A stretch of 64,000 nt of DNA from an uncultured Thermoleophilaceae bacterium (GTDB taxonomy: Bacteria > Actinomycetota > Thermoleophilia > Solirubrobacterales > Thermoleophilaceae), in NCBI GenBank assembly GCA_963830065.1, contig CAWHLA010000008.1, forward strand, positions 1-64,000, in the 5' to 3' direction. This document shows, piece by piece, positions 11,975 through 55,112 of the stretch. A program made the translations under genes and the position numbers. Below the pieces are notes generated by a model. The model searched no databases, had not been told where the DNA came from, and was given only the letters and a program-made list of their open reading frames with translations. Each line of letters opens with the position of its first letter. Within the stretch, counting starts at the first letter, position 1.

Positions 11975-12002
11975 TTGACAACGACGGGGACTCGGGTATC
12001 TT
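11975..12002 (+). promoter_or_regulatory. Sigma-70-like promoter (TTGACA-N16-TATCTT) upstream of the giant secreted-protein gene
   Basis: cccgTTGACAacgacggggactcgggTATCTTccg lies about 90 nt upstream of the ATG at 12094. Confidence 0.35.
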
Positions 12003-12093
12003 CCGCGTCCCGTTCCCGGGATACTACGCCCCTGCCCGCCCGCCGCACCTGCGGTCCGGGCCTGTCCTGAACCCACGGAAGGGCCGGCAGTCC

Positions 12094-15000
12094 ATGCGTA
12101 ACCCCGCTCCCCACCGGCCGATCCGGCCGGCCCTCGGCGTCGAGGCCCTGGAACTCCGGGACGTGCCCGCCGCGTCGCTGGTCGAGCCGTTCCAGCGGGG
12201 GCCGGTCGCCGACCTGCCGGCCGGCTGGCTCCAGTGGTCGTCCGACGGCACCCGGTCGTTCAAGGTCGACCCGACCGCCGCCGGCCTCGGGGACACCGGG
12301 CCAGCTCGCCTCGGCCGGGGCCGCGGCCACCGCCGCCCGGGCCTGGGTGTCCGCCCCGTTCGCCGCCGACGTCGAGACCCGGCCGCCGTCTACCTCAACT
12401 CGACCGTCCCGGTCCAGCTGTTCGTCCGCGGGCAGAACCTCGGCACCACCACGCCGACCTACTACGCCGCGTCCGTGACCCGCGGCGGCGGAGGTCCAAC
12501 TCTCAGGGTCGTGGCGGGCAGGCGACCGTGCTCGGCACCGTCCGAGTCGGCCGAGTACGTCAGCAACCGGTGGGTGCAGGTGAAGCTCCGGGCCGAGGGG
12601 GACACGATCCGCGTCACCCTCCACCGCGGCGACACCAACCAGTACCTCGGGCCGGACGGCAAGTGGGTCCGCGAACTGACCGCCGCGGTCATCGAGGTCG
12701 GACACCGCGATCCGCGACCGGCGGGCAGGTCGGGTTCGCCCGGCCGGCCGGGGCGGCCGGGACGGTCGGCATGGACAGCCTGCGGGTCGGCGCCGGCCGC
12801 GGACACCCGGCGGGCGACCCTGGCCGAGGAGCGGTTCGACCAGCCGCCGGCGGCCGGGCTGCCGGCCGGGTGGTCGCAGTGGGTGGCCGGGGCCGGCCGG
12901 TGACGTACCGGACCGAGGCCGACGAGACGCTCCGGGTGGCCGGGCCGAGCACCGGCGGGGCGGCCCGGGCGTGGTGACCGGACGCGGTCCCGGCCGACGT
13001 CCAGGTGTCGTCGTCGCTGTACGTGGACAGCCTGGTCCCGGCCGGGATGTTCGCCCGCGGCCAGAACCTCGTACACGAACCGGCCGACGCTACTACGGCC
13101 TGTCCGTCACGCCGCGGGCTGGAGGTCAAGCTCGCGAAGGTGGTGAACGGGGCCGAAGACCGTCCTCGGCACCGTCCGGTCGAAGGACTGGGTGAGCGGG
13201 CCGTGGGTGCAGGCGTCGCTGGTGACCAAGGGCGGCCGGCTGCGGGTGCAGGTCTTCCGCTCGGACACCGGGCAGTACCTGCAGCCCGACGGCACGCTGG
13301 GGCCTGGCCCCGGCGTGGGCGCTGACGCGGACCGACACGGCGATCACGGCCGGCGGCCTGGCCGGGCTGACCCGCGGGACGCGGGTACGCCGGGCAGCTG
13401 GTGTTCGACAACTTCATCGTCACCACCGCCCCGGCCCGGGTGACGACCGCCGGCCCGATCCCGACCGAGGGCGGACAAGCCGACGACCCGGTCCGACCCC
13501 GCCGGAAGACCGCCCGACGCCGCCGCCCGCCGCCGACGCCACCCCGACCGCCCGCCAGCCCGACCCCGACGCCCGCCGCCGACCCCGACCCGCCGACCAC
13601 CGGCCCGACGGGCTGCCGGCCGTGCCGCGGCACTACCCGCACATCCGGCTGGCCAACCTCGCCTACTACGGCACCCCGCTCGGGTCGTTCGAGCAGAGCC
13701 TGCTCCGGAACAGCGTCGACCTGGTCATCCCGAACCTCGACTACCTGGACGACATCGCAGCGGTCGCGCCCGAACACCCCGCAGTTCGTCTACACGAACG
13801 TCTCGAACATCTACCTCGGCCTGCTCACCGACTGGCTGGAGTACGCCGACCGCAACCGGCTGACCGCGAGGCGGCGTTCTACCACGTCAACCGGGCCGAC
13901 CCCGTTCAACGGGCTGAGCGCGTCGGCCGTCCCGGTCGAACCGCTTCTGGGGCGTGTACCGCGGGCACCGACGCGGCCGGCTGGGCGAACGTCACCAGCG
14001 ACGCCCGGAACGCGGCCACGACCGTTCGCCTTCGGCCGCGGCCGGCGAGTCGGTGGCGTTCGGCTACACCGAGAAGTTCCGCGAGATCAACGTCGACCTG
14101 CGGTCGGCGGCCGCGGGCGGGTGGAGCGGCGAAGCTGGAGTACGTCACCGCGGTGGACGCCCAGGGGCGGCCGACGGCGTGGGGGACGCTCGCCACTGAC
14201 CTGGCGACGGCACCGACGGGCCTGCGGCGGCGACGGGCAGGTCACGTTCGACCCGCCGCGGGACTGGGTGCCGGCGTCGGTCAACGGCGGCGCCCGGCTG
14301 TTCTACGTCCGGTTCCGGACGACCGCCGGCGGGCACCGCCCCGGTCGCCGTCACCGTGCTCGGCCGGGACTACACGAACGCACGGGGCAGCCGGCGGCAC
14401 CATCCCGGCGTTCGACTCCGCCGCCGACCGGGACGGCGACGGCTACCTGAACGACGCCGAGTACGCCGCCGGCAGGCCGGGGTTCGACGCCCGGTTCGTG
14501 TACGAGAGCCGGCTGATCTACCCGAACTACGGGCCGATGCGGTTCGCCACGAACGTCGCCGACCCCGGCGTTCCGGGCGTGGGCGGCGGACTACCACGCC
14601 CGGATCGCTGGCCGGGCCTGCCGCTGGCCGACGGGTTCTTCGTGGACAACTCGATCGGCCGGCTCGCCGTCGACCCGACCGGGATCAAGGAGTCGCTGAG
14701 CGGCTACGCCGCCGACTACGGGTCGCTGCTCGGGGCGATCAACCGGCGGCTCGGGGCGCGGGAAGTGGGTGATCGCGAACACGGCCGGCGGCGGCGCCGG
14801 CGGCCGAGCCGATCGTCCGGAACGGGGTGTCGTACCTGGAGGAGTTCGCCTGCGGCCGATCAGCGCCAACCACGTCCAGTTCGACGACCTGGCGGCCGAC
14901 GCTGGCGTACCGCCGGCAGCTCTCCGGCGGGAAGGCCTACGAGATCCTGGACAGCCTGCCGGCCGGCGCGGCGACGCGACCGACCCGCGGACCCAGCTGG

Positions 15001-15411
15001 CCACCCTGGCCATGTACTACCTGCTCGCCGACCCGGACCTGTCGTTCCTGATGATGAACGGCGGGAACGAGCCGGCCAGCGGGTGGGGCCGGCACTGGAT
15101 CGGAGGCGGCCACGTACAACGTCGGCCGGCCGACCGGCGGCGCACAAGGTGTTCGCCACCGGGACCGACCCGACCAACGCGCGGCTGGACTACAAGGTGT
15201 ACGCCGCGGGAGTACCAGAACGCCCTGGTGCTGCTACAAGCCGCTCTCGTACACCCGCGGGGTGAACGGGACGATGGCGGACGACACCGCCACCACGCAC
15301 CAGCTCGGCGGGTGGTACCGGCCGCTGCGGGCCGACGGGACGCTCGGGCCGCCGGTGAACAAGGTCACCCTGCGGAACGGCGAGGGGGCGGTCCTGGTGA
15401 GGGCCCCGTAG
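12094..15411 (+). CDS. Large (about 1100 aa) secreted hypothetical protein with a Planctomycete-type N-terminal LGVEALELRDVPA motif, two tandem ~190-aa internal repeats, a Pro/Thr linker and a C-terminal glycoside-hydrolase-like region, with many frameshifts
   Basis: MRNPAPHRPIRPALGVEALELRDVPAASL. Internal repeat: NSTVPVQLFVRGQNLGTTTPTYYAASVTRGGG...RWVQVKLRAEGDTIRVTLHRGDTNQYLGPDGKW versus DSLVPAGMFARGQNL...YYGLSVTRG...WVQASLVTKGGRLRVQVFRSDTGQYLQPDGTL. Pro-rich PTPTPAADPDPPTTGPTG. Then RLANLAYYGTPLGSFEQSLLRNSVDLVIPNLDYLDDIAAVAPEHP...QFVYTNVSNIYLGLLTDWLEYAD and DGDGYLNDAEYAAGRPGFDARFVYESRLIYPNYGPMRFATNV, TQLATLAMYYLLADPDLSFLMMNGGNEPASGWGRHW. Confidence 0.45.
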
Positions 15412-15427
15412 ATGCTGTTTCGCAACG

Positions 15428-25986: not shown

Positions 25987-26256
25987 TTACGCCGAGGTGG
26001 CCGGGGCTGCTTCCGCCGGCTTGACGTTCACCTTGCGGCCGTTCGAGCTGAAGAAGACGGTCCCGTCGACGAGCGCGAACAGGGCGTCGTTGCTGGCCCG
26101 CTTGACGTTCGCCCCGGGGTGCCACTTCGTCCCGCACTGGGTGACGAGGATGCTCCCGGTGGTGACCGCCTCGCCGGCGTACTTCTTGATCCCGCGCCGC
26201 TGGGCGTTCGAGTCCCGCCCGTTCTTGACCGAGCCCTGGCCCTTCTTGTGTGCCAT
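25987..26256 (-). CDS. rpmA: 50S ribosomal protein L27
   Basis: [69 protein letters not shown]. The frame is intact and no rplU is adjacent. Confidence 0.85.
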
Positions 26257-26340
26257 GTCAGTATCGCCTCCGCTACTGTGTCCGTAGTCGTTGGAAGGAT
26301 TGAGTATTGTAGCGGGGGTGCGGGAAGGGGCAACCCGGCA

Positions 26341-26435
26341 TCCGGGCGAACGGCCGGCGTCAGCCGGCTGGTGCGACCCGGAGCCGCCTGCGCCAAGGGA
26401 AACACCAGCCGGCTGACGCCGGCCGTTCGCCCGGA
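26341..26435. repeat. Perfect 33-bp inverted repeat with a 29-nt loop in the rpmA/argJ divergent intergenic region
   Basis: tccgggcgaacggccggcgtcagccggctggtg ...29 nt... caccagccggctgacgccggccgttcgcccgga. Confidence 0.55.
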
Positions 26436-26532
26436 CATGGAACCCGCATATCTTACCCCGTCGCCCGCCAACCGCCCCCACTTCCCGGCCGGCGTCCTTT
26501 CGACCGGTTGACCCGGCTGATACCATTGCGTC

Positions 26533-27723
26533 ATGAGCGAATGGCACCTCGCCCGCGGCTACCGGTACGCGGGCGTCGTCAGCGGGCTGCGCACCGAACC
26601 CGACCGCCGCGACCTGGCCGTCATCGTCAGCGACACGCCCGGCCGCCGCCGCCGGCGTGTTCACCCAGAACCGCGTGTGCGCCGCCCCGGTGCAGGTCAG
26701 CCGCGAGCGGCTCCCGCGGGCCGACGCCCGCGGCGATCGTCGTCTGCTCCGGCAACGCCAACGCCTGCACCGGCGAGCAGGGGCTGCGCCGACGCCCGCC
26801 GCATGGCCGAACTGGTCGCCGACGAACTCGGCTGCCCGCCGGAGCAGGTGCTCGTCGCCTCGACCGGCGTGATCGGCCGGCCGCTGCCGATGCCGGTGCT
26901 CGAGGCCGGCATCCCGAAGGCGGTCGCGCGCGGCCGCGCCCGGGCCGCGACGCCCTGCGACGACGCCGCCCACGCCATCCTGACCACCGACACCGGCATC
27001 AAGGTCGCGACCGCGGCGAGCTCGACGGCGGTCACGCGTCACCGGGTTCGCCAAGGGGGCGGCGATGATCGGCCCGAACATGGCGACCATGCTCGGGTTC
27101 GTCCTGACCGACGCCGCCGTCGGCCGCGCACGACCTGCACCGCATCCTGAAGGCCGCGCGCCGACGCGAGCTTCAACTGCGTCTCGTCGAGGGCCACACC
27201 AGCACCAACGACACGGTGTTCCTGCTCGCCAACGGCGCCGGCCCGCCGCTCGCCGGGCACGACCTGGCCGCGTTCCGCGACGCGGTCGCCGAGCGTGTGC
27301 GTCGAGCTGGCCCGGAAGATCGCCGCCGACGCCGAGGGGGCCGAGCACCTCATCACGATCGAGGTGGAGGGCTGCCGCGACCGACGCCGAGGCGCAGCAG
27401 GTCGCGAAGACGGTCGCCGACAGCGCCCTGGTGAAGACGGCGGTGTTCGGGGCCGACCCGAACTGGGGCCGGGTCGTGTCGGCGGCGGGGTACGCGGGCG
27501 TGGCGTTCGAGGAGAAGGACCTGTCGCTGTGGATGGGCGACCTGCTGCTGTACCGCGACGGGCACGCCGCTGCCGTTCGACGCGGCCGCCGGCGTCGGCG
27601 TACCTGAAGCACAACCGCGAGGTCCACTTCAGGCTGCGGTTCACCCTCGGCTCCGGCCGCTGCACGTTCTACACCTGCGACCTGACCTACGAGTACGTGA
27701 GGCTGAACGCGGACTACACGACG
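26533..27723 (+). CDS. argJ: Glutamate N-acetyltransferase / ornithine acetyltransferase (ArgJ), frameshifted
   Basis: [227 protein letters not shown]. Confidence 0.7.
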
Positions 27724-27793
27724 TGACCGTGAGCGAGTCGAGTCCGAGCGGACGTCCGCGACCGATGTCGACCTCGGCTCGACGACCTGCGAC

Positions 27794-28690
27794 ATGACCC
27801 CTCATCGAACTCGACGCGATCACCCGCACGTTCGGCACGTTCACCGCGCTGCACGACGTCACGCTGTCGCTGCCGCCGGGGCGGGTCGGGCTGCTCGGGC
27901 CGAACGGGGCCGGCAAGTCCACGCTGCTCAAGATCCTGATGGGGCTGCTCCCGCCGTCGCGCGGCACCGGCCGCGTGCTCGACCAGCCGACCTCGGCGGC
28001 GACCGCGACGCCGAGGGCAACTGGCGGCTGCGGCGGCTCATCGGCTTCATGCCCGAGGCCGACGCGCTCGTGCCCGGGCTGACCGGCGTCGAGTACGTCG
28101 CCCTGGCCGGCGAGCTGTACGGCATGCCGCGCCGGCAGGCCCAGCGCCGGGCCCACGAGGTGCTGTCGTACCTCGAACTGGAGGAGGCCCGCTACCGCCG
28201 CTCGAGGAGTACTCCGACCGGCATGAAGCAGCGGGCGAAGCTGGCCCAGGCGCTGGTCCACGACCCGCCGGTGCTGCTGCTCGACGAGCCGACCAGCGGC
28301 CTCGACCCGGCCGGCCGCGACGCCATGCTGCGGCTGGTGCCGCGCGCTCGGCACGCGACCACGGCAAGTCGGTGCATGCTCTCCACGCACCTGCTGGCCG
28401 ACGTGGAGGCGGTGTGCGAGCGGGTGGTGATCCTGGCCGGCGGGCGGGTCCGCGGGCAGGGGACGGTCGAGCGAGCTGTGCGCCCGCCGGCAGGACCGCT
28501 ACCGCTTGCGGGTGCAGGGCGACCCGGCCGCGTTCCGCGACGAGCTGGCGGCCGAGGGCGTGACGGTGCTCGGCCGACAACGGCCAGGGCGAGTGGCGGG
28601 TGGCGGTGCCGGCCGGCTGGTCGAACCTGGCGTTCTTCAAGCTGGCCGACGTGAACGACGTGGTCATCCGCGCGCTGCTGCCGCGACGAC
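27794..28690 (+). CDS. ABC transporter ATP-binding protein, frameshifted
   Basis: [63 protein letters not shown] (Walker A), then [43 protein letters not shown] (signature/Walker B). Confidence 0.6.
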
Positions 28691-28728
28691 GAGACGCTGG
28701 AGGAGCTGTTCCTCCGGACGGTGGCGAG

Positions 28729-29265
28729 TTAGCCGGACGCTGAGCAGCGAGCGCGAGCCGTCGCTGCTCGACGTCGCGGCTGACTCGCCGCTACCGACGC
28801 CGATGCCCGCGCACACCGACACCCTGTTGCGCTACCGCCCGTGGCGCGGCACGCTGCACGGGCCGCTGTGCGCGGCCGTGGCGATGGCCCGGGTGTCGCT
28901 GCGGCTGCATGTTCCGCCGCCGGCTGTTCTGGGGGCTGTTCGCCCTCGGCCTGCTCGTGTTCTTCTTCTTCTTCTACGGCCAGTACCTCGTCGTCTGGAT
29001 CACGCAACCAGCTCGCCGACCGAGACCGTGCCGGTTCGCCGGCATCCCGGTGCACGCGTCGACGACCTGACGAAGTTCCTCGACCGGCTCGCCCTGAACG
29101 GCACCGCCCACACGTTCGGCAACTTCATCTGGTTCGAGGGGTACGTGCGTCGTGATCGTGCTGGCCCTGGCCGGGTCGGTGCTGGTCGGCAACGACTTCT
29201 TCCACGGCAGCCTGCCGTTCTACCTGTCGAAGCCGATCGGCCGGTGGCACTACGTCCTCGGCAGC
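28729..29265 (+). CDS. ABC-2-type permease fragment, frameshifted and cut off mid-gene at the junction
   Basis: LLRYRPWRGTLHGPLCAAVAMARVSLRLH, RLFWGLFALGLLVFFFFFYGQYLVVWITQ, IVLALAGSVLVGNDFFHGSLPFYLSKPIGRWHYVLG. No plausible continuation follows ~29265. Confidence 0.4.
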
Positions 29266-29486
29266 GACACCAACGGCGCCACAGGGGCGGCGATCAGCAC
29301 CAGGAACTCGGTTACCGCCTCCAGGTCGAGCTGCCCGGTCGACTCCAAGTGATCCACGTACGCGAGCACCACCTCGGCCAGGTCGACCTCGAGCAGGTCG
29401 ACCTCGTCGCGCAGGACGAGCGACAGCAGCAGGTCGAACGGGCCGTGGAAGACCTCGAGGTCGAGGTCGATGGAGGCGAGCGCCAC
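29265..29486 (-). pseudogene. scpA: N-terminal fragment (about 72 aa) of segregation/condensation protein ScpA, truncated at the junction
   Basis: MALASIDLDLEVFHGPFDLLLSLVLRDEVDLLEVDLAEVVLAYVDHLESTGQLDLEAVTEFLVLIAA. The expected LLELKSR continuation is then replaced by unrelated sequence (PVAPLVSLPRT*). No other frame restores ScpA. Confidence 0.55.
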
Positions 29487-29496
29487 GACGGGCAGC

Positions 29497-30486
29497 TTAG
29501 GCCGGGGGTCCGACGCCCATGGCCCGGCGCACGTCGCCGAGCGTGTCCGAGGCGATCCCCCGGGCGCGATCAGCGCCTTCGCGCAGCGCTCCCTCCAAGG
29601 CTTCCTCGTCGGGCCGCAGCTCCAGGTAGCGCACCCGCACGGGTTCGAGGAGCGCGATCAGCTCCTCGGCAACCGCAGATTTGAAGTCTCCGTAGCCGGC
29701 GCCGTTGAACTCTTCTTCGATAGCCGAGGGGTCGATCCCTCGCACGACAGCCAGCACCTCGATCATGTTCGAGATGCCGGGCTTGTCCGGCGCGCGCACG
29801 ACCTCCCGCCCGGAGTCGGCCACCGCGCGCTTGAGCTTCTTGCGGATGGCGTCCGGCTCGTCGTCCACGAAGACCAGGCCCTGCTCGGTGCCGACGGTGG
29901 TGGACATCTTCCGCGTGGGCTCCTGCAGGTCCATTATCCGGGCGCCCACGCCGGGTATGCGGTGCTCGGGCACCACCAGCACCTCCCCGTACGTCGCGTT
30001 GAAGCGCAGCGCGATGTCGCGCATCAACTCGACGTGTTGGCGCTGGTCGTCGCCCACCGGCACCTCGTGCGCGCGATAGGCCAGCACGTCCGCGGCCTGG
30101 AGCACCGGGTAGAGGAACAGCCCGGCCGAGACGAGCTCGCGCTGCTGGGCTGACTTCTCCTTGAACTGATGCATCCGGTTGAGATCGCCGTGCGCGGTGA
30201 CCGAGCTCAGGAGCCAGCACAGCTCGGTGTGCTCGTGCACGTCGCCTTGCCGGAACAGGATGCAGCGCGCTGGGTCCAGGCCGGAGGCCAGGAGCATCGC
30301 GGTCGTGTCGTACACGCGCGAGCGAAGCTCGGCGGGGTCGTAGGGCACCGTCGTCGCGTGCAGGTCGACGATGCAGTAGATCGCCGGGTCGCCGCGGTCC
30401 TGGCCCTCCACGTACTGGCGGATGGCGCCGAGGTAGTTGCCCAGGTGCTTGCGCCCCGTGGGCTGGATGCCGCTGAAGATCTTCAA
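29497..30486 (-). CDS. trpS: Tryptophan--tRNA ligase
   Basis: MKIFSGIQPTGRKHLGNYLGAIRQYVEGQD...KMSTT (KMSKS-like). Intact 329 aa. Confidence 0.9.
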   Translation of the reverse strand: MKIFSGIQPTGRKHLGNYLGAIRQYVEGQDRGDPAIYCIVDLHATTVPYDPAELRSRVYDTTAMLLASGLDPARCILFRQGDVHEHTELCWLLSSVTAHGDLNRMHQFKEKSAQQRELVSAGLFLYPVLQAADVLAYRAHEVPVGDDQRQHVELMRDIALRFNATYGEVLVVPEHRIPGVGARIMDLQEPTRKMSTTVGTEQGLVFVDDEPDAIRKKLKRAVADSGREVVRAPDKPGISNMIEVLAVVRGIDPSAIEEEFNGAGYGDFKSAVAEELIALLEPVRVRYLELRPDEEALEGALREGADRARGIASDTLGDVRRAMGVGPPA

Positions 30487-30509
30487 GGAGGCGCCAGTCT
30501 AGGCGCGGC

Positions 30510-32141
30510 TCAGGCCTTGGCCCCGGCCTCCTCGGTCTCCAGCTCGCCCTCCTCCAGCCGCGTTCGCAGCACCTTCTTGTCGAACTTGCCGACGCTGGTC
30601 TTCGGCACCTCCTCGATGAAGGCGAACTGCTCGGGCAGCCACCACTTGGCCACCCGCTCGGCCAGGTGCTCGCGCAACTGATCGGCGGAGGGTGACTCGC
30701 CCTCCTCGCACACCACGCAGGCCAGCGGGCGCTCCGACCAGCGCTCGTCCGGCCGCGCGATCACCGCCGCCTCGGCCACGCCGGGGTGCGACATCAGCTC
30801 GTTCTCCAGGTCGACCGACGAGATCCACTCGCCGCCCGACTTGATCACGTCCTTGGAGCGGTCGGAGATGCGGATCGTGCCGCGCTCGTCGATCGAGGCA
30901 ACGTCGCCGGTGCGCAGCCAGCCGTCATGGAACTTCTCCGCGCCGGCCGGGTCCTCGTAGTACTCCGAGCAGATCCACGGCCCGCGGATCTCCAGCTCGC
31001 CGGTCTGCTCGCCGTCGAAGGGCAGCGGCTCGCCCTGCTCGTCGCAGATGCGGATGTCCAGCAGCGGGAGCGGGTGTCCGGCGGTGGCGCGCTGCTCCCA
31101 GTGCTCCTCGCCCTCGGCGTCGGGCAGCGGATGGGCCACCGAGGCCAGCGGGCTGGTCTCGGTCATCCCCCACGCCTGCACGATCCTCATTCCGTGGCGC
31201 TCCTCGAACTGCTCCATCAGCGAGCGCGGCACGGCCGAGCCACCGCAGGCCACGATCCGGATGCTGGACAGGTCGGGCTGGTTCTCGTCGGCGTAGCGCA
31301 GCAGGTCGAGCCAGATGGTCGGCACGGCGCCGGCCACGGTCACCTTCTCGTTCTCGATCAGCTTGGCCAGCGGCTCGGCCTGGAGGAACTGGCTGGGCAT
31401 CACCAGGTCGGCCCCCATGAGCATCGCCCCGTGGGCGAGGCTCCAGGCGTTGGCGTGGAACATCGGCACGACCGGCATGACGCGGTCGCCGCGCGACACC
31501 CCGAGCCCGTCGGCCAGGCCCGTCGCGAGCGCCTGCAGCAAGGTCGATCGGTGGGAGTAGAGGACGCCCTTTGGGTTGCCGGTGGTGCCGCTCGTGTAAC
31601 ACAGCCCCGCCGCCTGGCGGTCGTCGATCTCCGGGTAGTCGAAGCCCTCGTCGCCCTCCTCCAGCAGCTCGTCCATCGTCATCGCGTTGGGAAGGGAGCC
31701 GGTCTCCGACCCGCCCATGACCACGAAGCGCTCGACGGTGTCGAAGCTCTCGGCGTGCTCTGACAGGGCGTCCACCAGCAGCGAGTCGACCAACACGACC
31801 TTGTCCTGGGCGTGGTTGGCGATGTAGGTGAGCTGCTGGGCGAACAGGCGGATGTTCAGCGTGTGAAGCACCGCGCCCATCGTCGGGATGGCCAGGTAGG
31901 CCTCCAGGTGGTGCTGGGAGTTCCACGCGAAGGTGGCCACCCGGTCGCCGGGCTCGACACCCAGTGACTTCAGCCCGGCGCAGAGCCGGTCCACCCGCCC
32001 CGCGAGCTCGCCGAAGGTGGCGCGCTCGGTCCCGTCCGCGGTGAGCGTCGCCACCTCGGCGTCGGCGTGGAAGGTCCGCACCCGCTCCAAGATGTGCTGG
32101 ACGGTCAACGGGTGATCGTGCTGCATCAGCCCCTCGAGCAT
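30510..32141 (-). CDS. Long-chain-fatty-acid--CoA ligase (AMP-dependent synthetase)
   Basis: Intact 543 aa with ...[18 protein letters not shown]... and C-terminal ...GKFDKKVLR. Confidence 0.85.
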
Positions 32142-32149
32142 GCGGCCGT

Positions 32150-33793
32150 ATGATGCCCCACATGACGCTCTCGTACTCGCACGGGGTGTCCGAGACTCCC
32201 CTCCTCGGCGAGACCATCGGAGAGAACCTCGAGCGAACCGTCGCGCGGGATACCGAGGCGGACGCGCTGGTGGTCCGCCACCAGGACGTACGGATGACCT
32301 ACGGCGAGCTGAACGCCGAGGTCGACCGCTTGGCGCGCGCGCTGATGTCCGCGGGGCTGAAGCCGGGCGACCGAATGGGCATCTGGGCGCCCAACTGCGT
32401 CGAGTGGGTCCTCGTCCAGTACGCGAGCGCCAAGGCGGGCGTGGTGCTCGTCAACGTCAACCCGGCCTACCGCACCAGCGAGCTGGAGTACGCCCTGCGC
32501 CAGTCCGGCTGCCGGATGCTGGTGTCGGCCACCGGGCACAAGACCTCGGACTACCGGGCGATGGTGGGCGAGGTGCGAGACGGGCTCGACGCGCTCGAGC
32601 GCGTGGTCTTCACCGAGACCGGCGACTGGGAGGAGCTGCTCGCCGAGGCCGACGAGGTGAGCGAGGACGAGCTGCGCGAGCGCTCCGGGTCCCTGTCGGC
32701 CGACGAGGCGATCAACGTGCAGTACACGAGCGGCACCACCGGCTTCCCCAAGGGCGCCACGCTGTCGCACCACAACATCCTCAACAACGGGTTCTTCGTG
32801 GGCGAGCTGTGCGGATACACGGCCGACGACCGCGTATGCATCCCGGTGCCGTTCTACCACTGCTTCGGCATGGTCATGGGCAACCTGGGCTGCACCTCGC
32901 ACGGCGCCTGCATGGTGGTGCCGGAGGGCGGCTTCGAGCCCGAGGCCACGCTGGCCGCGGTGGCCGAGGAGCGCTGCACCTCGCTGTACGGGGTGCCCAC
33001 CATGTTCATCGCCGAGCTGGGGCTGGCGAACTTCGGCGACTTCGACCTGGCCAGCCTGCGCACCGGGATCATGGCCGGCTCGCCCTGCCCCACCGAGGTC
33101 ATGAAGCAGGTGGTCTCCGACATGCACATGGAGGAGGTGGCCATCTGTTACGGCATGACCGAGACCTCCCCGGTCTCCACCCAGACCCGCGCCGACGACC
33201 CGCTGGAGAAGCGCGTCGGGAGCGTCGGCCAGGTGCACCCCCACGTGGAGGTCAAGGTGGTCGACCCCGACACCGGCCAGACGGTGCAGCGCGGCGAGAC
33301 CGGCGAGCTGTGCACCCGCGGCTACTCGGTGATGCTCGGCTACTGGGACGACCAGGAGCGCACGGCGGAGGCCATCGACTCCGCCCGCTGGATGCACACC
33401 GGCGACCTGGCCACGATGGACGACGAGGGCTTCGTCAACATCGTCGGGCGCTCGAAGGACATGATCATCCGCGGCGGCGAGAACATCTACCCGCGCGAGA
33501 TCGAGGAGTTCCTGCACACCAGCCCCGAGGTCTCCGACGTCTCGGTCATCGGCGTGCCCGACGAGCGCTACGGCGAGGAGATCATGGCCTGGGTGATCCT
33601 GGTCGAGGGCTCCTCGGCCGACGAGGACGCGCTACGCGACTTCTGCCGCGAGAAGATCGCCCACTACAAGGTGCCCCGCCACGTGAAGCTGGTCACCGAG
33701 TTGCCGATGACGGTCACCGGCAAGGTGCAGAAGTACAAGATGCGCGAGCAGGCGATCGAGGAGCTGGGGCTGAAGGAGGCCGCGACCGCCTAG
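32150..33793 (+). CDS. Acyl-CoA synthetase (AMP-binding)
   Basis: Intact 547 aa with [23 protein letters not shown] and ...[11 protein letters not shown]. Confidence 0.85.
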
Positions 33794-34203
33794 TGCATCC
33801 AGGGGGCGTAGGAGAGCCCGACGATCGCGCCGTCGGCCGAGAGCAGACGGGCCACGGTCTGGCCCCAGGGCTCGGTGCGGGTGTCGTGCAGCAACTCGAA
33901 GCCCTGCTCCTCCAGCTCGGCAGCTCCGGACGCCACCGCGTCGGCGGTCTCGACCTCGAACTCGATGCTCACCTGAGGGACGGTGATGCCCTCGGGCCAG
34001 GTCTCGCTGCCGAAGCACGCCTCAGCCGCCTGGGAGAGCGGCCAGACGCCGAAGTGCCTGGTGCCCTCGACCTTCTCGCTGTGCCAGTAGCCCTGGGGAT
34101 CGTCGCCGTCCAGGGGCAGGCCCAGGGCCTCGACGTACAGCTTGCGGCTCTCAGGGGGGTCCGCGGCGATCGGGCTCACGCTTGATACGAAGAGAATGTT
34201 CAT
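33790..34203 (-). CDS. VOC/glyoxalase-family small protein
   Basis: [55 protein letters not shown]...[60 protein letters not shown]. Confidence 0.6.
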
Positions 34204-34209
34204 GAGCAC

Positions 34210-35001
34210 ATGGAAGCGGTTACGGGCCGAGCGGTCTTGAAGGAAACGGACACCTACGTCGAGCTCCCGCCGCCCACCCCGCTGCGCGGGTCGATCGCCT
34301 GCCTGTGGATGCGCCGCGGCGACGGCGAGACCGTGCGGGTGCTCCCCGACGCCTGCGTGGACCTGGTGTGGCGCGCGGGCTCCGGCGCGATGCTCGCGGG
34401 CCCCGACACGGGGCCCGCACTGGCACCGACCCGCGAAGGCCAGGCGATCGCCGGCGTTCGCTTCCTGCCCGGCGCCGGCGGCTCCGCTCTGGGCCTCCCC
34501 CTCGACGAGCTGAGCGACCGGCGCGTGGGCCTTGAGGAGGTGGGGCTGGACCCCGACAGGCGCCTGAGCGGCGACCTCGACCCCTGGGACGCGCTCGGGC
34601 TGCTGGCCGGGGTGGCCACGCGGCTGGCCGCCTCCAGGGCTCCCGACCGGGCCGTGCAACAGGCGACGCTGCGGCTGCTGGACCCGCGCCAGCGGGTGGA
34701 GTCGCTCGCCGGGGACCTCGGCCTCAGCGAGCGCCAGCTGCGCCGCCGCTGCCGAGCCGGGGTGGGCTACGGGCCCAAGACGCTGCAGCGCGTCCTGAAG
34801 CTGCGCCGCTTCCTGCGCACCGCCGCCGGCGACCTCGGCCGCGCGGCGCTCGACGCCGGCTATTCCGATCAGGCCCACCTCACGCGCGAGTGCCGGCGGC
34901 TCACCGGGCTGTCTCCCGCGCTCCTTCGGGCAGCGAGCGGGCCCGCTCGGCCAGCTGCGCGCGCTCGGGCTGGTTGTTCGTTAGCGCCGCCGCGCGCTTG
35001 A
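34210..35001 (+). CDS. AraC-family transcriptional regulator (DUF6597-like N-terminal domain plus HTH)
   Basis: ...VRVLPDACVDLVWRAG...LGLSERQLRRRCRAGVGYGPKTLQRVLKLRRFLRTAAGDLGRAALDAGYSDQAHLTRECRRLTGLSPAL. Confidence 0.75.
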   Translation: MEAVTGRAVLKETDTYVELPPPTPLRGSIACLWMRRGDGETVRVLPDACVDLVWRAGSGAMLAGPDTGPALAPTREGQAIAGVRFLPGAGGSALGLPLDELSDRRVGLEEVGLDPDRRLSGDLDPWDALGLLAGVATRLAASRAPDRAVQQATLRLLDPRQRVESLAGDLGLSERQLRRRCRAGVGYGPKTLQRVLKLRRFLRTAAGDLGRAALDAGYSDQAHLTRECRRLTGLSPALLRAASGPARPAARARAGCSLAPPRA

Positions 35002-36184
35002 GCTCGATCCGGGCCTCGTCGTAGCGCCCGAGGCGGGCCAGCAGCTCGCCGCGCACGCTGGGCAGCAGGTGGTACCCGTCCAGGGCGGGCTCGCCGCTCA
35101 GCTCGTCGACCAGCGCCAGGCCGGTCTCCGGCCCGAAGGCCTGGGCCAGCGCGACCGCGCGGTTGAGCTCCACGACGGGCGAGCCGGTCAGCGCCGCGAG
35201 CTGCTCGTACAGGGCGGCGATGCGCGTCCAGTCGGTCTGCTCGGGCGTGCGGGCGCGGGCGTGGCACGCGGCGATGGCGGCCTGGAGCTCGTACGAACCG
35301 GGCTCGCCGCCGAGGTCCTCGGCGCGGTCGAGCGCCTTCAGGCCGCGCCCGACCAGCACCCAGTCCCACCGCCCCCGGTCCTGGTCGGCCAGCAGCACGG
35401 GCTCGCCGCCCGGGCCCACACGGGCCCGGATGCGCGAGGCCTGGATCTCCATCAGCGCGACCAGCCCGTGCACCTCGGCCTCGCGCGGGGTGAGCTCGGC
35501 GAGCATGCGCCCCAGGCGCAGGGCGTCCTCCACCAGCCCGGGGCGCATCAGGTCGCCGCCGGCGGTGGCCGAGTAGCCCTCGTTGAAGACGAGGTAGATC
35601 ACCTCCAGCACGGAGGCCAGGCGCTCGTCGAGCTCGTCCGGGCCGGGCACCTCGAAGGGCAGCTCGGCGTCGGCCAGCGTCTTCTTGGCCCTCACGATGC
35701 GCTGGGCCAACGTCGCCTCGGGGACCAGGAAGGCGCGGGCGATCTCCTTCGTGGTCAGGCCGCCCATCATCCGCAGCGTCAGCGCCACGCGGGCCTGGGT
35801 GGGCAGCATCGGGTGGCAGGTGGTGAAGATCAGGCTGAGCAGGTCGTCGCCGATGTGGTCGTCGGCGGCCGCGGCCAGGTCGGGGTCGGCGCCGCCCCGG
35901 TCCAGCTCCAGCTCGCGGCCGAGCTGCTCGTGCTTTCGCTCGGCCATCTTCTGGTGGCGCAGGCGGTCGATGCCGCGGTGCTTCGCGGTGGCCATCAGCC
36001 AGGCGCCGGGGTTCTCCGGCACGCCCTCGCGCGGCCACTGCTCCAGCGCCGCCACGAGCGCCTCCTGGGCGAGGTCCTCGGCCAGGCCCACGTCGCGCAC
36101 GGTGCGGGCCAGGCCCGCGATCAGCCGGGCGGACTCGATCCGCCAGACCGCCTCTACGGCACGGTGAGCGTCAGGGGACCCCAA
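34901..36184 (-). CDS. SigJ-like ECF sigma factor (about 420 aa, sigma-70 regions 2 and 4 with a C-terminal extension)
   Basis: AVEAVWRIESARLIAGLARTVRDVGLAEDLAQEALVAALEQWP...PGAWLMATAKHRGIDRLR...LTLRMMGGLTTKEIARAFLVPEATLAQRIVRAKKTLADA. Confidence 0.75.
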   Translation of the reverse strand: MGSPDAHRAVEAVWRIESARLIAGLARTVRDVGLAEDLAQEALVAALEQWPREGVPENPGAWLMATAKHRGIDRLRHQKMAERKHEQLGRELELDRGGADPDLAAAADDHIGDDLLSLIFTTCHPMLPTQARVALTLRMMGGLTTKEIARAFLVPEATLAQRIVRAKKTLADAELPFEVPGPDELDERLASVLEVIYLVFNEGYSATAGGDLMRPGLVEDALRLGRMLAELTPREAEVHGLVALMEIQASRIRARVGPGGEPVLLADQDRGRWDWVLVGRGLKALDRAEDLGGEPGSYELQAAIAACHARARTPEQTDWTRIAALYEQLAALTGSPVVELNRAVALAQAFGPETGLALVDELSGEPALDGYHLLPSVRGELLARLGRYDEARIELKRAAALTNNQPERAQLAERARSLPEGARETAR

Positions 36185-36209
36185 GGCCCCCTGACGCTAG
36201 ATCACCGGG

Positions 36210-36640
36210 CTAGGCGTTCTGCTCGGCCTGGGCGCGCAGGCGCTCCTCCTGCTCGCGCAGCTCGGGCGTGTACTCGTCGCCGAAGTCCTCGGCCTCGAAG
36301 ATCTGGCGGATCTCGATCTCGCCGTCCTGCTCGTCGGCCGGGTTGGGGCAGCGCTTCATCCACTCGATGGCCTCCTCCCAGTCCTTGGCCTGGATCACCC
36401 AGTAGCCGGCGATCAGCTCCTTGGTCTCGGTGAAGGGGCCGTCCACCACGGTCCGCTCATCGCCCGAGAACTTGATCCGTGCGCCCTTCGAGCTGGGGTG
36501 CAGGCCCTCGCCGGCCAGCATCACGCCGGCCTTGACGAGCTCCTCGTTGAACTTGCCCATCTCCGTGAGCATCTTCTCGCTGGGCATCACGCCCGCCTCG
36601 GAGTCCTCGTTGGCCTTGACCAGAACCATGAATCGCATTG
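36210..36640 (-). CDS. YciI-like (YCII-related) protein, the usual partner of this sigma class
   Basis: MRFMVLVKANEDSEAGVMPSEKMLTEMGKFNEELVKAGVMLAGEGLHPSSKGARIKFSGDERTVVDGPFTETKELIAGYWVIQAKDWEEAIEWMKRCP. Confidence 0.75.
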
Positions 36641-37297
36641 ACAGCTCCTCTCGTAGATTGCCCTTCAGTGACGCGTCGAACGAGCGAGCACAGTTTCGAC
36701 ACACCTCACGGGGAATCGGTCGCCCGGCTGTTCGCGGCGCCGGATCCGCGCGGTGCGCTGGTGCTGGGGCACGGCGCCGGGGGCGGGGTCGAGGCGCCCG
36801 ATCTGGTGGCGGTCACCGAGGCCGCGGTGGCGGAGGGCTTCAGCGTGGCGCTGGTCCTCCAGCCCTACCGGGTGGCCGGGAAGAAGTCCGGGCCGGTGCC
36901 GGCCAAGCTGGACGAGGCGTGGGCCGCGGTGGTGGGCGAGCTCGCCTCGGGGAAGCTGGCGGGCGTGCCGCTGGTGACCGGCGGGCGCTCCGCGGGCGCC
37001 CGCGTGGCCTGCCGGACCGCCGCGCAGACCGGGTCAGCGGGCGTGCTGTGCCTCGCCTTCCCGCTCCAGCCCCCGCCGCGTGCGGGAAAGCCACCGGGGC
37101 CGACCCGCATCGACGAGCTGGAAGCGGTCTCGGTCCCGGTGCTCGTGGTGCAGGGCGAGAGCGACCGGTTCGGGATGCCGGAGCCCGCTCCGGGACGCGA
37201 GGTGGTGCAGGTGGCGGGTGACCACGGGCTCAAGAAGGACACGCCCGCGGTGGCTGCCGCGGTCACGCGCTGGCTGGCTGCACGCGTGCCTGCCTAG
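36638..37297 (+). CDS. Alpha/beta-hydrolase fold protein (dienelactone-hydrolase-like). The start is uncertain.
   Basis: ALVLGHGAGGGVEAPDLVAVTEA...LVTGGRSAGARVACRTA...VLVVQGESDRFG. Confidence 0.6.
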   Translation: MTAPLVDCPSVTRRTSEHSFDTPHGESVARLFAAPDPRGALVLGHGAGGGVEAPDLVAVTEAAVAEGFSVALVLQPYRVAGKKSGPVPAKLDEAWAAVVGELASGKLAGVPLVTGGRSAGARVACRTAAQTGSAGVLCLAFPLQPPPRAGKPPGPTRIDELEAVSVPVLVVQGESDRFGMPEPAPGREVVQVAGDHGLKKDTPAVAAAVTRWLAARVPA

Positions 37298-37306
37298 TCT
37301 GCGGGC

Positions 37307-37765
37307 ATGGCCTACACCACCGCAGAGGGGCAGCAAGAGCTGCTCGACACCCTGGGCGAGGCGACCTCGCAGCTCGGCCGCGCCCTGGGGTCGCTCGGCG
37401 AGGCCTACGAGAAGCTCGACGAGCAAACCGCCGATCGCCTCGAGGAGGAGCTGTTCGGGCCGGCCCAGCGCGCCTTCGGGCGCGTGCAGCGCGTGTACTC
37501 CGGGTTCGCCGGCCGCCACGGGCTGAACGCCCGGGGCTTCAGCCCCGAGTCCGCTGGTCTGCCCTCCACCGGCGCGGCCGGCTTCATCGAGGAGGCGGTG
37601 TTCGCCCTCAACGAGGCCGCGGCCTCCCTGGTCACCCTGCAGGAGTCCGAGCCCTGGACCGAGGTGGCCGACGAGGAGCTCCGCGCCGGCGTGGCCGAGA
37701 TCCGCCAGCTGGTGGACGACCTGCCTCAGCAGGCCCGCGGCCTGGTCCGCACCCTCGGCCGCTAG
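37307..37765 (+). CDS. Hypothetical helical protein, 152 aa
   Basis: Intact ORF with compositionally normal codon usage. No recognisable family. Confidence 0.4.
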   Translation: MAYTTAEGQQELLDTLGEATSQLGRALGSLGEAYEKLDEQTADRLEEELFGPAQRAFGRVQRVYSGFAGRHGLNARGFSPESAGLPSTGAAGFIEEAVFALNEAAASLVTLQESEPWTEVADEELRAGVAEIRQLVDDLPQQARGLVRTLGR

Positions 37766-38614
37766 GTGCTCCGGCTCGCCGCGGCGGGCCTGACCTGCTT
37801 CCTGTTGGCGGGGTGCGGCTCGGGGGAGGCTCCCCCGCCCCCGCCCAAGCCGGAGCGGGCGGCGGCGCCGCTGTGCTCGAAGCTGCGTACGCGGGTCACC
37901 GGCCGCGTAGAGAGCCCGGCCGCCACCGAGCTGTCGGGCCTGGTGGCCTCGCGCACCAAGCCCGGACTGCTGTGGACCCACAACGACTCCGGTGACAGCG
38001 CCCGTCTCCTCGCCGTCGGCGTGAACGGCCGTCCCCGGGGTGAGCTGCAGGTCCCGGGCGCCGAGAACGTGGACTGGGAGGACATCGCGGCCCGAGGAGA
38101 CACGCTGTTCGTGGGCGACATCGGCGACAACGACTCGCAGCGCCCGCAGATAACCGTCTACCGGGTTCGCGAGTCCGGCGCCGCTGCGGGACGGCTGGAC
38201 CTGCGCTACGCCGACGGCGCCCACGACGCCGAGACCCTGCTTGTCGATCCCGTCGACGGCTCGGTGGCGGTGGTGACCAAGAGCTTCGGGGGCGAGAACC
38301 GCGTTTACACGGCGCGGGGGACCACGCTCCGCCGCGGCCCCTTGGTGCCGGTGACGCCCGGCGAGGCGGTGACCGCCGGCGACGTCTCCGCTGATGGCCG
38401 CACGATCGTCCTTCGCAGCTACGACCGGGCGCTGGTGTGGACACGGCGCAAGAGCGAACCGCTCGCCAAAGCCCTCTCCCGCAAGCCGTGCGTCGCCGGC
38501 GCCGACCTGGTGGGCGAAGGCCAGGGGGAGGCGCTGGCGCTGGCCGCGGACGGCCGGTCGTTCTTCACGGTCGCGGAGGGAAGGCGACCGCCGCTGCGGC
38601 GTTACACCCCCTAG
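37766..38614 (+). CDS. Secreted lipoprotein (lipobox LLAGC), hypothetical, possibly beta-propeller/phytase-like
   Basis: MLRLAAAGLTCFLLAGCGSG...ELSGLVASRTKPGLLWTHNDSGDSARLLAV...DWEDIA...LFVGDIGDN. Confidence 0.55.
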   Translation: MLRLAAAGLTCFLLAGCGSGEAPPPPPKPERAAAPLCSKLRTRVTGRVESPAATELSGLVASRTKPGLLWTHNDSGDSARLLAVGVNGRPRGELQVPGAENVDWEDIAARGDTLFVGDIGDNDSQRPQITVYRVRESGAAAGRLDLRYADGAHDAETLLVDPVDGSVAVVTKSFGGENRVYTARGTTLRRGPLVPVTPGEAVTAGDVSADGRTIVLRSYDRALVWTRRKSEPLAKALSRKPCVAGADLVGEGQGEALALAADGRSFFTVAEGRRPPLRRYTP

Positions 38615-39808
38615 TCGTCCTCGGCCGGAAACAGCCAGGTGGCCAGCCGCGGTGCGCGATGCAGCAGCGAGGCCCGCGTGACCGAGGTGGCGCCGAAGCG
38701 GTCGCGGACCTCGTCGAGCACGTGGTCCAGCACGTCGCCGTGACGCTCATCGATCGGAAGCTGCAGCTGACGGCTCCCGGACTGGAGGTTGCTGACGGTG
38801 ACGCCGACCATCGTAAGCCCCCGCTCCTCGATCAGCTCTCGCTCGGCGGCCAACAGCGTGCGCATCTCCGCCAGCACGGCGCTGGTGGCCGAGGTCGGCG
38901 CGGGGAGGGTGTGTGAGCGGGTCGCGCGGCCGAAGTCGCCGAAGCGCATGCGCAGGACCACCGTCCGCCCCGCCCTGCCCTTCGCGCGCATGCGGCGCGT
39001 GACGCGGTCGACCAGCGCGAGGACCGTCGCGTCCAGCGCCTCGGGCTCGAACCGCCTCGTGCCGATGCGCGCACTGCGAGCCCACCGAGCGCCGCCGCGG
39101 GGTGCGCTTGACCGGCCGCGGATCGCGGTTGTGCGCCAGGGCGTGGAGCTTGCGGCCGGCCCCGCGTCCCACGAGCTCCACGAGGCGGCTCTCCGGCAGG
39201 CGTGCCACCTCGCCCACGGTGCGCAGGCCCACGGCGTGGAGCTTCTCCGCGGTGGCCGGCCCGACGCCCCACAGCGCCTCGGCCTCCAGCGGGTGCAGGA
39301 ACTCCAGCTCCCTGTCGGGCTGGACCACCAGCAGCCCGTCGGGCTTGGCCTGGCCGCTGGCGACCTTGGCCAGGAACTTGGTGCGCGCCACACCCACGGT
39401 GATGGGCAGGCCGATGCGCTCGCGCACGTCGCGCCTCAGCTGCTGCGCGATCTCGGTCGGGGTGCCCTTGATGTGCTCGAGCCCCCGAGCGTCGAGGAAC
39501 GCCTCGTCGATCGACAACCGCTCGACTGTGGGAACCGCGTCCTGGAACAGTCCGGCCACCGCCTCGCCGGCCTCCACGTAGGCGTCGAAGCGCGGCGAGA
39601 CCACGATCGCCTGGGGGCAGAGCTCGCGCGCACGCCGCCCGCCCATCGCCGAGCGGACGCCGAACGCCCGCGCCTCGTAGGAGGCGGCCATGACCACCCC
39701 GGGGCCGACGATCACCGGCTTGCCGCGCAGGCCCGGGTCGTCGCGCTGCTCCACCGACGCGAAGAAGGCGTCGAGATCGGCGTGGAGCACCGAGGCCTGG
39801 GCTTGCAC
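38611..39808 (-). pseudogene. dinB: DNA polymerase IV (DinB) with a single frameshift near 39100-39390 (real pseudogene or indel error)
   Basis: GTG start. MQAQASVLHADLDAFFASVEQRDDPGLRGKPVIVG...ERLSIDEAFLD...LPITVGVARTKFLAKVASGQAKPDGLLVV...WGVGPATAEKLHAVGLRTVGEVA. It then continues in another frame: GTRRFEPEALDATVLALVDRVTRRMRAKGRAGRTVVLRMRFGDFGRATRSHTL. Confidence 0.6.
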
Positions 39809-39821
39809 GAACGTATGTTCG
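39808..39821. promoter_or_regulatory. Cheo-type LexA/SOS box CGAAC-N4-GTTCG, abutting the dinB start codon
   Basis: cgaacgtatgttcg sits in the 78-bp divergent region between dinB and the RibD_C-family gene. Confidence 0.5.
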
Positions 39822-39885
39822 CACAGGTCCCCCGCTCGCGGAAGCGGCTACAAATCCAACGACAAGCGAGAGGAAGGAGCACCCC

Positions 39886-40518
39886 ATGACACTCGCCCGA
39901 GTCCACAACTTCTCCATCTCACTCGACGGCTTCGGCACCGGTGAGGGCCTGAGCCAGGACGCGTACTTCGGCCACGCCGGCGAACGGCTGCACGAGTGGA
40001 TGTTCGCCACCCAGTGGTGGCAGGCGGGTGGCAGCGCCGGCATCGACGACGCCTTCACCCAGCGGTTCAGCCCGGGGATCGGCGCGGAGATCATGGGTGC
40101 GGGCAAGTTCGGCGCGCCGGGATGGCAGGAGGACCCGGACTGGAAGGGCCCGTGGGGTCCCAACCCGCCGTTCCACACGCCGACCTTCATCCTCACCCAT
40201 CACCCGCGCCCGTCGGTCGAGATGGAGGGCGGCACGACGTACCACTTCATCGACGCGTCGCCTGCCGAGGCGCTCGAGACGGCGCGCGAGGCTGCGGGCG
40301 GCCAGGACGTTCGCCTCGGCGGCGGTCCCAGCATGATCCGCGACTTCCTTGCCGCGGGGCTCGTCGACCACATGCACGTCGTAGTGGTCCCGATCCTGCT
40401 GGGCCGGGGCGTGCGCCTATGGGACGGGCTGGAAGGCCTCGAGAACGACTACGAGATCGAGGCCATCTCCTCGCCCAGCGGGGTCACGCATGTGACCTTC
40501 ACCCGTGCGGCTCGCTAG
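39886..40518 (+). CDS. Dihydrofolate-reductase-family protein (RibD C-terminal domain)
   Basis: MTLARVHNFSISLDGFGTGEG...HTPTFILTHHPRPS...VRLGGGPSMIRDFLAAGLVDHMHVVVVPILLG. Confidence 0.75.
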   Translation: MTLARVHNFSISLDGFGTGEGLSQDAYFGHAGERLHEWMFATQWWQAGGSAGIDDAFTQRFSPGIGAEIMGAGKFGAPGWQEDPDWKGPWGPNPPFHTPTFILTHHPRPSVEMEGGTTYHFIDASPAEALETAREAAGGQDVRLGGGPSMIRDFLAAGLVDHMHVVVVPILLGRGVRLWDGLEGLENDYEIEAISSPSGVTHVTFTRAAR

Positions 40519-44573: not shown

Positions 44574-45648
44574 CTACTCCTCGCTCTTGCTGTACAGGGG
44601 CTTGGTCTTCACCTCGGCGGCGCGCGGCTTGCCCCGCACGTCGACCTCGATCTCGGTTCCGGGCTCGGTGGCCGCGCGGGGTAGGTAAGCCATGCCGATG
44701 CCCTGCTCCAGGCAGGGGGACTTGGTGCCGCTGGTGACGACGCCCTCGCCCGCGGGGGTCTTCACCGGATTGCCCTGACGGGGGATGCCGGGACCGGTGA
44801 AGGCGAAGGGCGCCAGGAGGTCGTCGGTCTCGTCGGGCAGCGCGTCGGCGCCGATGAAGCCGGTCTCGCGCTTGCAGGCCCACCCCAGCCCGGCTTCGAT
44901 CGGGTTGCGGTCCTCGGACAGGTCGTTGCCGTAGAGGTGGAAGCAGACCTCCAGGCGCAGCGTGTCGCGCGCCCCCAGGCCGACGGGGGTCACGCCCGCG
45001 TCCATCAGGGCGTCCCAGACCGTGACCGCGCCGTCGGGCGGGATCATCAACTCCACGCCGTCCTCGCCGGTGTAGCCGGTGCCGCAGACCAGCACCTCCT
45101 GACCGACGACGGTGAGCGTGTCCGTGCGCATGCGCTTGGGAAGCTCGCCCTCGCTCAGGCGCTCGACGATCCCGCGCGCCTCCGGGCCCTGCACGGCGAG
45201 CATGGCGTAGTCGGCGTGCGCGTCGCGAACCTCCACGTCGAACCCCTCCGCGTGCTCGGCCAGCCAGGCATGGTCGCGCTCGTGATTGGAGGCGTTGGTG
45301 ACCGTGAGGTAGCGATCGGGGCCCAGCTTGTAGGTGAACAGGTCGTCGAGCACGCCACCGTCCTCGCGGCACAGAACGGAGTACTGGGCGCCGCCCTCCG
45401 CGAGCTTGGCCAGGTCGTTGGACAGCACGTGCTGAAGGAAATCCTGCGAGCCCGGGCCTTCGGTCACGACCTCGCCCATGTGGGACACGTCAAAGACCCC
45501 GGCGCCGGTGCGCACCGCCTTGTGCTCGGGCCCGATCCCCTCGTACTGCACCGGCATCTCCCAGCCGGCGAAGGGAACCAAGCGGGCGCCCGCGGCCTGG
45601 TGGCGCTCGAACAGGGGCGTCCGCCGCAGCGTGTCCGTGGCGGAGGTC
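44574..45648 (-). CDS. gcvT: Aminomethyltransferase (glycine cleavage T protein), probable TTG start
   Basis: [59 protein letters not shown]. Confidence 0.85.
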
Positions 45649-45681
45649 AAGGCGTCGGAGGCTACAGGCGGTCCGGCGGGG

Positions 45682-47640: not shown

Positions 47641-47674
47641 ACGTCTCGCCGACCGGCCAGCCCCAACCGTCGGC

Positions 47675-55082: not shown

Positions 55083-55112
55083 CCGGGCCTACTTCTACGC
55101 CCGACCCCGGAC

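Follow-up and report, generated by a model that had tools for sequence, protein, structure and literature searches.

The 64,000-nucleotide stretch of DNA analyzed here (the window) contains a junction at 29263/29285 that is almost certainly a technical artefact linking two sequences that are unrelated. Taxonomy and composition change where sequence accuracy changes and where two genes, an ABC-2 permease and scpA, are broken. The left block is related to Gemmataceae and the right block to Solirubrobacterales, and the joined sequences probably derive from high-GC soil-type metagenomic data. The original prediction, which was made from the DNA letters and favored a chimeric assembly or a concatenation over a biological insertion, is borne out in this respect, as accuracy, taxonomy, tetranucleotides and genes all break together. 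The features on both sides of the junction are listed in Table 1.

Table 1. Positions and strands of the two blocks, their genes and the bases between them (window coordinates).
Feature	Position	Strand	Description
Left block	1–29263		Low-accuracy Gemmataceae (Planctomycetota) chromosome segment; genes recognizable only after frame stitching
Left-block genes	within 1–29263		ComEC-like DUF4131, aroB, GT87, inositol-1-P synthase, TIM-barrel isomerase, PhyH
Left-block genes, continued (1)	within 1–29263		PVC-type haem dehydrogenase, GGT, large secreted protein, FHA-GAF histidine kinase
Left-block genes, continued (2)	within 1–29263		Two Band-7 proteins, P-type ATPase, ECF sigma with TIGR03067, L27, argJ
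Left-block genes, continued (3)	within 1–29263		ABC ATPase, ABC-2 permease
ABC transporter ATP-binding gene	27800–28730	+	Several frameshifts; 308-aa stitched product, TIGR01188 at 1.4e-55
ABC-2 permease	28803–29263	+	First ~155 of ~270 codons, in four frame segments; cut at the junction
Orphan bases GCGACACCAACGGCGCCACAG	29264–29284		Effectively 17–21 nt; compared with L081 and L082 (permease) and L083 (scpA)
Right block	29285–64000		Clean Solirubrobacterales (Thermoleophilia, Actinomycetota) chromosome segment
scpA	29285–29486	-	N-terminal 67 codons only; 98.5% identity to ScpA residues 1–67
trpS	29497–30486	-	Intact, first complete right-block gene; TIGR00233 283.7 bits, cut-off 176.75
Right-block genes	29285–64000		trpS, two acyl-CoA ligases, regulators, dinB-like gene, gcvPB/PA/T, ftsZ-ftsQ, mur/fts dcw cluster to mraZ

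The permease on the plus strand and scpA on the minus strand had both been predicted to be cut mid-gene, and the ends of homology agree with this. Gemmataceae DNA homology runs to 29263, within the permease, Solirubrobacterales DNA homology begins at 29285, within scpA, and the truncation of both genes confirms a break near 29,270. The permease reads ...FYLSKPIGRWHYVLG on its plus strand, its homology stops at 29262–29263 with the end ...YLSKPIGRWHYVLG at 29262, and ~115 codons are missing. Its homologues reach 83% identity when the frame-stitched query is used, and one of them is a Gemmataceae bacterium by its NCBI name; all of them go on past ...GRWHYVLG with KCLAIG.... Two contigs carry Gemmataceae-type permeases that continue beyond the window break with KCLA(I/V)G..., one from JGI (L081) and one from ENA (L082; ERZ25039485 contig_5801, 3.8 Mb). 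Their nucleotide alignments to the window end at 29261 and 29263, respectively, and each contig then carries the remaining permease. The window is 86–88% identical to L082 at the nucleotide level over 26482–29263, and the ABC ATPase gene upstream of the permease is syntenic with the same contig. A full-length permease homologue of 270 residues (P0020) aligned to the window only through its own residue 111. The permease frame is thus lost at the junction as predicted, yet the gene is already broken before the junction, as single-base insertions upstream scatter it over four reading-frame segments.

On the right side, the minus strand from 29486 to 29286 encodes residues 1–67 of the 240-residue ScpA of a close relative at 98.5% identity, and the fragment covers positions 4–64 of the 246 positions in the ScpA profile. 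It starts at 29486 with MALASIDLDLEVFHGPFDLL...TEFLVLIAA, after which unrelated residues follow; the open frame crosses the orphan bases into the permease and reaches a chance stop at 29250. About 72 residues of scpA had been thought to remain; the truncation itself holds, but only 67 residues are homologous and the rest is orphan sequence. The whole window lacks the 173 C-terminal scpA codons and the entire scpB gene. In blastn comparisons with ~60 Solirubrobacterales relatives, whose loci were taken from the trpS search, nucleotide similarity ends in every case at 29285–29287.

Relatives of the right block provide the natural continuation of scpA. A search with TrpS returned a match that is 100% identical over 77% of the query and lies on a 17.5 kb contig (L083; ENA ERZ25039591 contig_59858). 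This contig is 98.1% identical to the window over 29285–39755 and 98.5% identical over 39837–40516, and it extends 6.3 kb past the window homology with the remaining scpA (240 aa), scpB and further genes. Since a 98%-identical contig runs into intact scpA and scpB, the natural neighbor of the scpA fragment is the rest of scpA. The same order, trpS-scpA-scpB, is found on a 394 kb ENA/NCBI contig (L084), and in a representative GTDB locus (L007) trpS is followed directly by a 245-residue scpA and then by scpB. A reference genome with the same adjacency as the window had been named as something to look for, and the opposite was found in L083. A second contig of the same assembly as L083, contig_59856, encodes an FtsZ identical to that of the window and is 98.5–98.8% identical to window positions 44976–55388. 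The closest TrpS homologues are 92% identical, and those named by source are Thermoleophilaceae or Solirubrobacterales. The trpS search of GTDB representative genomes gave at least 80 loci, nearly all labelled Solirubrobacterales or Thermoleophilaceae, with a best identity of 76% among the GTDB matches listed. Among the matches listed, none of these Solirubrobacterales loci, at least 80 in number, has genes of the other block as neighbors.

The predicted abrupt junction is real, although it is not a flush join, as about 17–21 nt at 29264–29284 belong to neither side. Direct comparison of these orphan bases with the natural continuations in L081, L082 and L083 gave only chance-level similarity. 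Neither the missing part of the permease nor the missing part of scpA occurs elsewhere in the 64-kb window, in agreement with the claim that no other frame restores either protein. A single border lies within the window, and the window start falls inside the Gemmataceae block. A 51-mer spanning the junction was not found in GTDB representative genomes, JGI metagenomes or IMG/VR, and a 51-mer from the right flank was not found in JGI metagenomes. Exact-protein matches were absent for the 78-residue chimeric scpA open reading frame, for trpS and for the neighboring 543-residue acyl-CoA ligase.

Features of a biological insertion were sought at the border. No tRNA or tmRNA is present in the window, and no Rfam family is matched. 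Searches for microhomology, a target-site duplication and direct or inverted repeats at the border gave only matches of 70–80% identity, which is the chance level that would be expected for 72% G+C DNA. No integrase, transposase, relaxase, phage gene or recombinase was identified by Pfam and NCBIfam scans of the frame-stitched left block, at a sensitivity lowered by the frameshifts; the stretches scanned were those other than two short stitched runs in 6898–9437 and the stitched stretch 26251–27565. The stitched-protein scans and the tRNA, Rfam and repeat searches all support the original observation that no IS element, integrase, tRNA or target-site duplication marks the boundary.

The gene content and relatives of the two blocks identify their separate origins, as had been proposed from a Planctomycete-like left side and an Actinobacteria-like right side. 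The nearest relatives are Gemmataceae and Zavarzinella for the left block, and Solirubrobacterales and Thermoleophilaceae for the right block. For a second left-block protein, too, the best relatives that carry a name are from Zavarzinella, Gemmataceae and other Planctomycetota. Family scans of the left block used frame-stitched pseudo-proteins. The stitched PVC-type dehydrogenase matches TIGR02604 above cut-off with 349.5 bits over profile positions 2–366 of 367, and its domain is spread across six frame segments from 7161 to 8269. TIGR02603 reaches 61.1 bits, slightly below its 68.15-bit cut-off; stitching recovered no more than the first 60 of the 134 profile positions, which accounts for the shortfall. 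A TIGR03067 domain is fused to an ECF sigma factor, and the left block also carries a ...ALGVEALELRDVPA N-terminus; the left-side content read from the letters is thus recovered in full, with TIGR02603 remaining below cut-off. TIGR02604, TIGR03067, L27, GGT and DHQ synthase are the families that stitched left proteins match at full length and with high scores. With L27, aroB and argJ among its genes, the left block is an ordinary slice of Gemmataceae core chromosome and not a mobile element.

The right-block content was also read correctly. The dcw cluster has the order mraZ-rsmH-ftsI-murE-murF-mraY-murD-ftsW-murG-murC-ftsQ-ftsZ without ftsA and is a classical actinobacterial cluster, gcvT is accompanied by split gcvPA/gcvPB, and a perfect Cheo box lies at 39808–39821. 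The right block is collinear with GTDB Solirubrobacterales loci.

Base composition is nearly the same in the two blocks, with a G+C fraction of 0.723 on the left and 0.716 on the right, and at ~0.72 on both sides the break is invisible from base composition alone. Tetranucleotide usage resolves it. Correlations are 0.957 and 0.958 within the halves versus 0.897 between them, and on the first principal component the six left chunks and the seven right chunks (13 in total) are completely separated. The largest distance between neighboring chunks falls at 28–30 kb. For comparison with references, the analysis was restricted to parts of the window that are non-homologous to those references. Positions 1–26000 correlate at 0.976 with the Gemmataceae contig L082 and at 0.92–0.93 with Solirubrobacterales loci, and positions 41000–64000 correlate at 0.953 with L082, 0.985 with L084 and 0.983 with L083. 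The comparison of composition that had been recommended for the two halves thus separates them cleanly, each half being nearest to references of its own lineage. A secondary distance peak occurs near 12 kb. A second join at this position was considered and rejected, since along the first principal component the left chunks stay in one cluster, and a secreted protein of high G+C is encoded there.

The 29263/29285 junction also marks a change in sequence accuracy. Because third codon positions are ~95% G+C when the DNA as a whole is 72% G+C, the frame can be followed directly from the sequence, and a simple HMM of GC3 phase was used to count coding segments and same-strand frame switches. In 1–29263 it finds 117 coding segments with a median length of 149 nt and 83 same-strand switches (28.4 per 10 kb), and in 29285–64000 it finds 34 coding segments with a median length of 970 nt and 6.0 switches per 10 kb. 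Six clean reference loci give 5.2–7.1 same-strand switches per 10 kb, and this baseline is the rate of gene boundaries. The related ENA contigs are intermediate, with 15.9 switches per 10 kb in L082 and 10.9 in L083. Under the same HMM, an additional short-read locus with a lower G+C content had 0 switches.

The left-block frame switches fall within genes, and homologous proteins align to the block in two or three successive frames. Alignment of the final 459 nt of the left block with the intact short-read open reading frame of L081 shows seven gaps, and all seven are single-base insertions in the window. The gap sites in the comparison with L082 comprise 27 at which the window carries an additional base and eight at which it lacks bases. 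The errors are thus biased to insertions, they are not confined to homopolymers, and their density is roughly one indel per 65–200 nt. Of the 11 genes in the right block's first 11 kb, 10 are intact and collinear with L084, and the sole lesion is one frameshift in the dinB-like gene.

The left-block pattern is the signature of consensus or sequencing error and not of gene decay. Pseudogenization is not indicated by the lesions, which are overwhelmingly single-base indels with few in-frame stops and few large deletions. GC3 within the left-block frame segments stays near 0.9–1.0, and the full-length family matches of the stitched proteins indicate that the coding sequence is intact apart from the indels. 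Accuracy is a property of the data and not of the cell, and as it changes at the base where the genes are cut, the two sides have separate technical histories. An indel-rich left block beside a clean right block is explained only by a technical origin. The original prediction did not include this argument, the strongest one available, that single-base indels fill the left half and not the right.

Three readings in which the adjacency is genuine were weighed against an artefactual join. The original prediction had held in reserve a remarkable inter-phylum transfer of ~29 kb. In such a history, end joining at a double-strand break in a Solirubrobacterales scpA would have captured a piece of Gemmataceae core chromosome of at least 29 kb, which would since have been decaying. 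The cut flanks without a target-site duplication and the ~20 filler bases do superficially resemble non-homologous end joining, and G+C is similar on both sides, but we regard this history as very unlikely. Decay is difficult to reconcile with lesions that are almost solely single-base indels, amounting to at least 83 frame switches with few large deletions or in-frame stops, or with the retention of codon bias (GC3 near 0.9–1.0), full-length family matches and a tetranucleotide usage that is still Gemmataceae-like. The transfer would also have destroyed scpA, which is intact in a 98%-identical relative, and its cargo would be core genes without mobility genes. The contrast between an error-ridden left block and a clean right block that begins immediately at the junction further opposes it. 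The idea that a mobile element or genomic island was inserted here, carrying the permease-side DNA, has equally little to recommend it. A horizontally acquired island would share with the window an abrupt change of composition and a sharp border in phylogenetic affinity; however, stitched left-block scans show no integrase, transposase, relaxase or phage gene, the border has no tRNA and no direct or inverted repeat, and the cargo would consist of core housekeeping genes, including ribosomal protein L27, aroB and argJ, delivered at the cost of scpA. The foreign side differs in sequencing accuracy as well, which is not a biological property.

It could also be argued that the adjacency is true and belongs to one genome, with a left part that is merely badly sequenced or polished and an apparent taxonomy that is misleading. 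Assemblies of the relatives do vary in quality between contigs, as the frame-switch rates of L082 and L083 illustrate. Poor polishing, however, cannot truncate two genes and delete 173 codons of scpA together with ~115 codons of the permease, nor can it alter nearest relatives or lineage-specific families such as TIGR02604 and TIGR03067, and the probability of this reading is close to nil.

An artefactual join therefore remains the preferred explanation, and its possible routes can be outlined. The two pieces would be consensus sequences of a Gemmataceae chromosome, at low accuracy, and of a Solirubrobacterales chromosome, at high accuracy, each ending at an arbitrary point inside a gene, with ~20 noisy bases between them. 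Separate contigs or records, for example those of one bin or assembly file, may have been laid end to end without a spacer; alternatively, a long-read assembler or a chimeric read may have linked contigs of low and high coverage. Both routes are compatible with the arbitrary cuts, the orphan bases and the lack of any sequence in common. If the join is an artefact, end-to-end concatenation is the somewhat more probable route and an assembler or read chimera comes close behind it; we lean slightly to concatenation because an assembler would have had to drop the well-supported continuation of scpA for a weak link. For a random join, the near-equal G+C across the junction is slightly surprising, but it would follow from binning by composition or from high-GC taxa being abundant in soil.

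The window resembles chimeric contigs and contaminated bins, the problem that GUNC and CheckM were built to detect. As in such sequences, two lineages occur on one sequence with an abrupt switch in taxonomy, k-mer usage and inferred coverage or accuracy, and genes are cut arbitrarily at a border without biological features. As for the sequencing technology, the left block resembles a low-coverage long-read consensus, in which dense single-base indels break genes into short frame segments, and the related ENA contigs with Flye-style names (L082 and L083) exhibit a milder form of the same indel problem. The left-block errors are insertion-biased and not homopolymer-limited, however, and errors of this kind would not be expected from polished Nanopore assemblies. 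Most of the GTDB relatives are Nanopore MAGs from Microflora Danica, and the soil assemblies of that project were made with Flye plus one round of Medaka (PMC12313526); GUNC is a tool cited in the same source.

If true, the join would represent an extraordinary transfer of core chromosome between phyla, and the evidence is strongly against this. The significance of the junction is instead limited to quality control. Inferences of gene neighborhood, operon structure or transfer drawn across 29.2–29.3 kb would be wrong, and at the indel density observed every gene call in 1–29263 is unreliable. The jump observed here in how densely GC3-phase frame switches occur, which coincides with the jumps in taxonomy and k-mer usage, amounts to an inexpensive way of testing high-GC data for chimeric joins without reads.

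The Solirubrobacterales-type species of the right block is also represented in an independent ENA assembly, ERZ25039591, by contigs L083 (contig_59858) and L085 (contig_59856). These two contigs share 98.1–98.8% nucleotide identity with the right block, and L085 encodes an identical FtsZ; on sequence comparison, their source and the right block belong to the same species. The ERZ25039591 contigs are broken at positions corresponding to 40516 and 44976 of the window, not at 29285.

The left block (1–29263) carries indel errors in which insertions predominate. Relative to L081, a Gemmataceae-type JGI contig (Ga0562381_06172), all seven gaps are insertions in the window, and relative to L082, a 3.8-Mb Gemmataceae contig from ENA (ERZ25039485 contig_5801), an extra base is present at 27 sites and a base is missing at eight. 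Several of these indels are other than homopolymer extensions, and such an insertion-biased error profile is unusual. L082 itself exhibits 15.9 same-strand frame switches per 10 kb, and its published gene calls, such as protein record P0032, are partly out-of-frame translations; at 7612–10935, argJ is split over two calls and the permease is frameshifted. In L081 (3617–5330), an IS630-like element (HTH_23/DDE_3) interrupts the homologous ABC-2 permease after residue 191, at a position different from the window's break, and this interruption is unrelated to that break. Scanning of the stitched translation of the large secreted protein in the left block yielded no Pfam or NCBIfam match; its gene coincides with a secondary tetranucleotide-distance peak near 12 kb.

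Features in the two blocks
Feature	Position	Basis or contents
Large high-GC secreted protein	11977–15419	N-terminus ...ALGVEALELRDVPA
trpS–gcvPB interval	30500–40500	Two acyl-CoA ligases, AraC/DUF6597 regulator, sigma-70/DUF6596 factor, YCII, hydrolase, dinB
dinB-like Y-family polymerase gene and LexA box (right block)	38614–39821	IMS domain
RibD_C-like gene	39886–40518	Divergent from dinB-like gene

The Cheo-type LexA box that the original prediction placed on the right side is indeed present, as a perfect match (CGAACGTATGTTCG, 39808–39821) adjoining the start codon of the dinB-like gene. A single frameshift near 39042–39068 splits this gene; the right block is otherwise clean. The divergent gene is not lexA but RibD_C-like.

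An interval of ~10 kb separates trpS from gcvPB. Among the matches listed, this interval has no nucleotide similarity in GTDB Solirubrobacterales relatives, and most of it is present in L083 and L084, ENA contigs from closer relatives; it is therefore, by these comparisons, a lineage-specific block.
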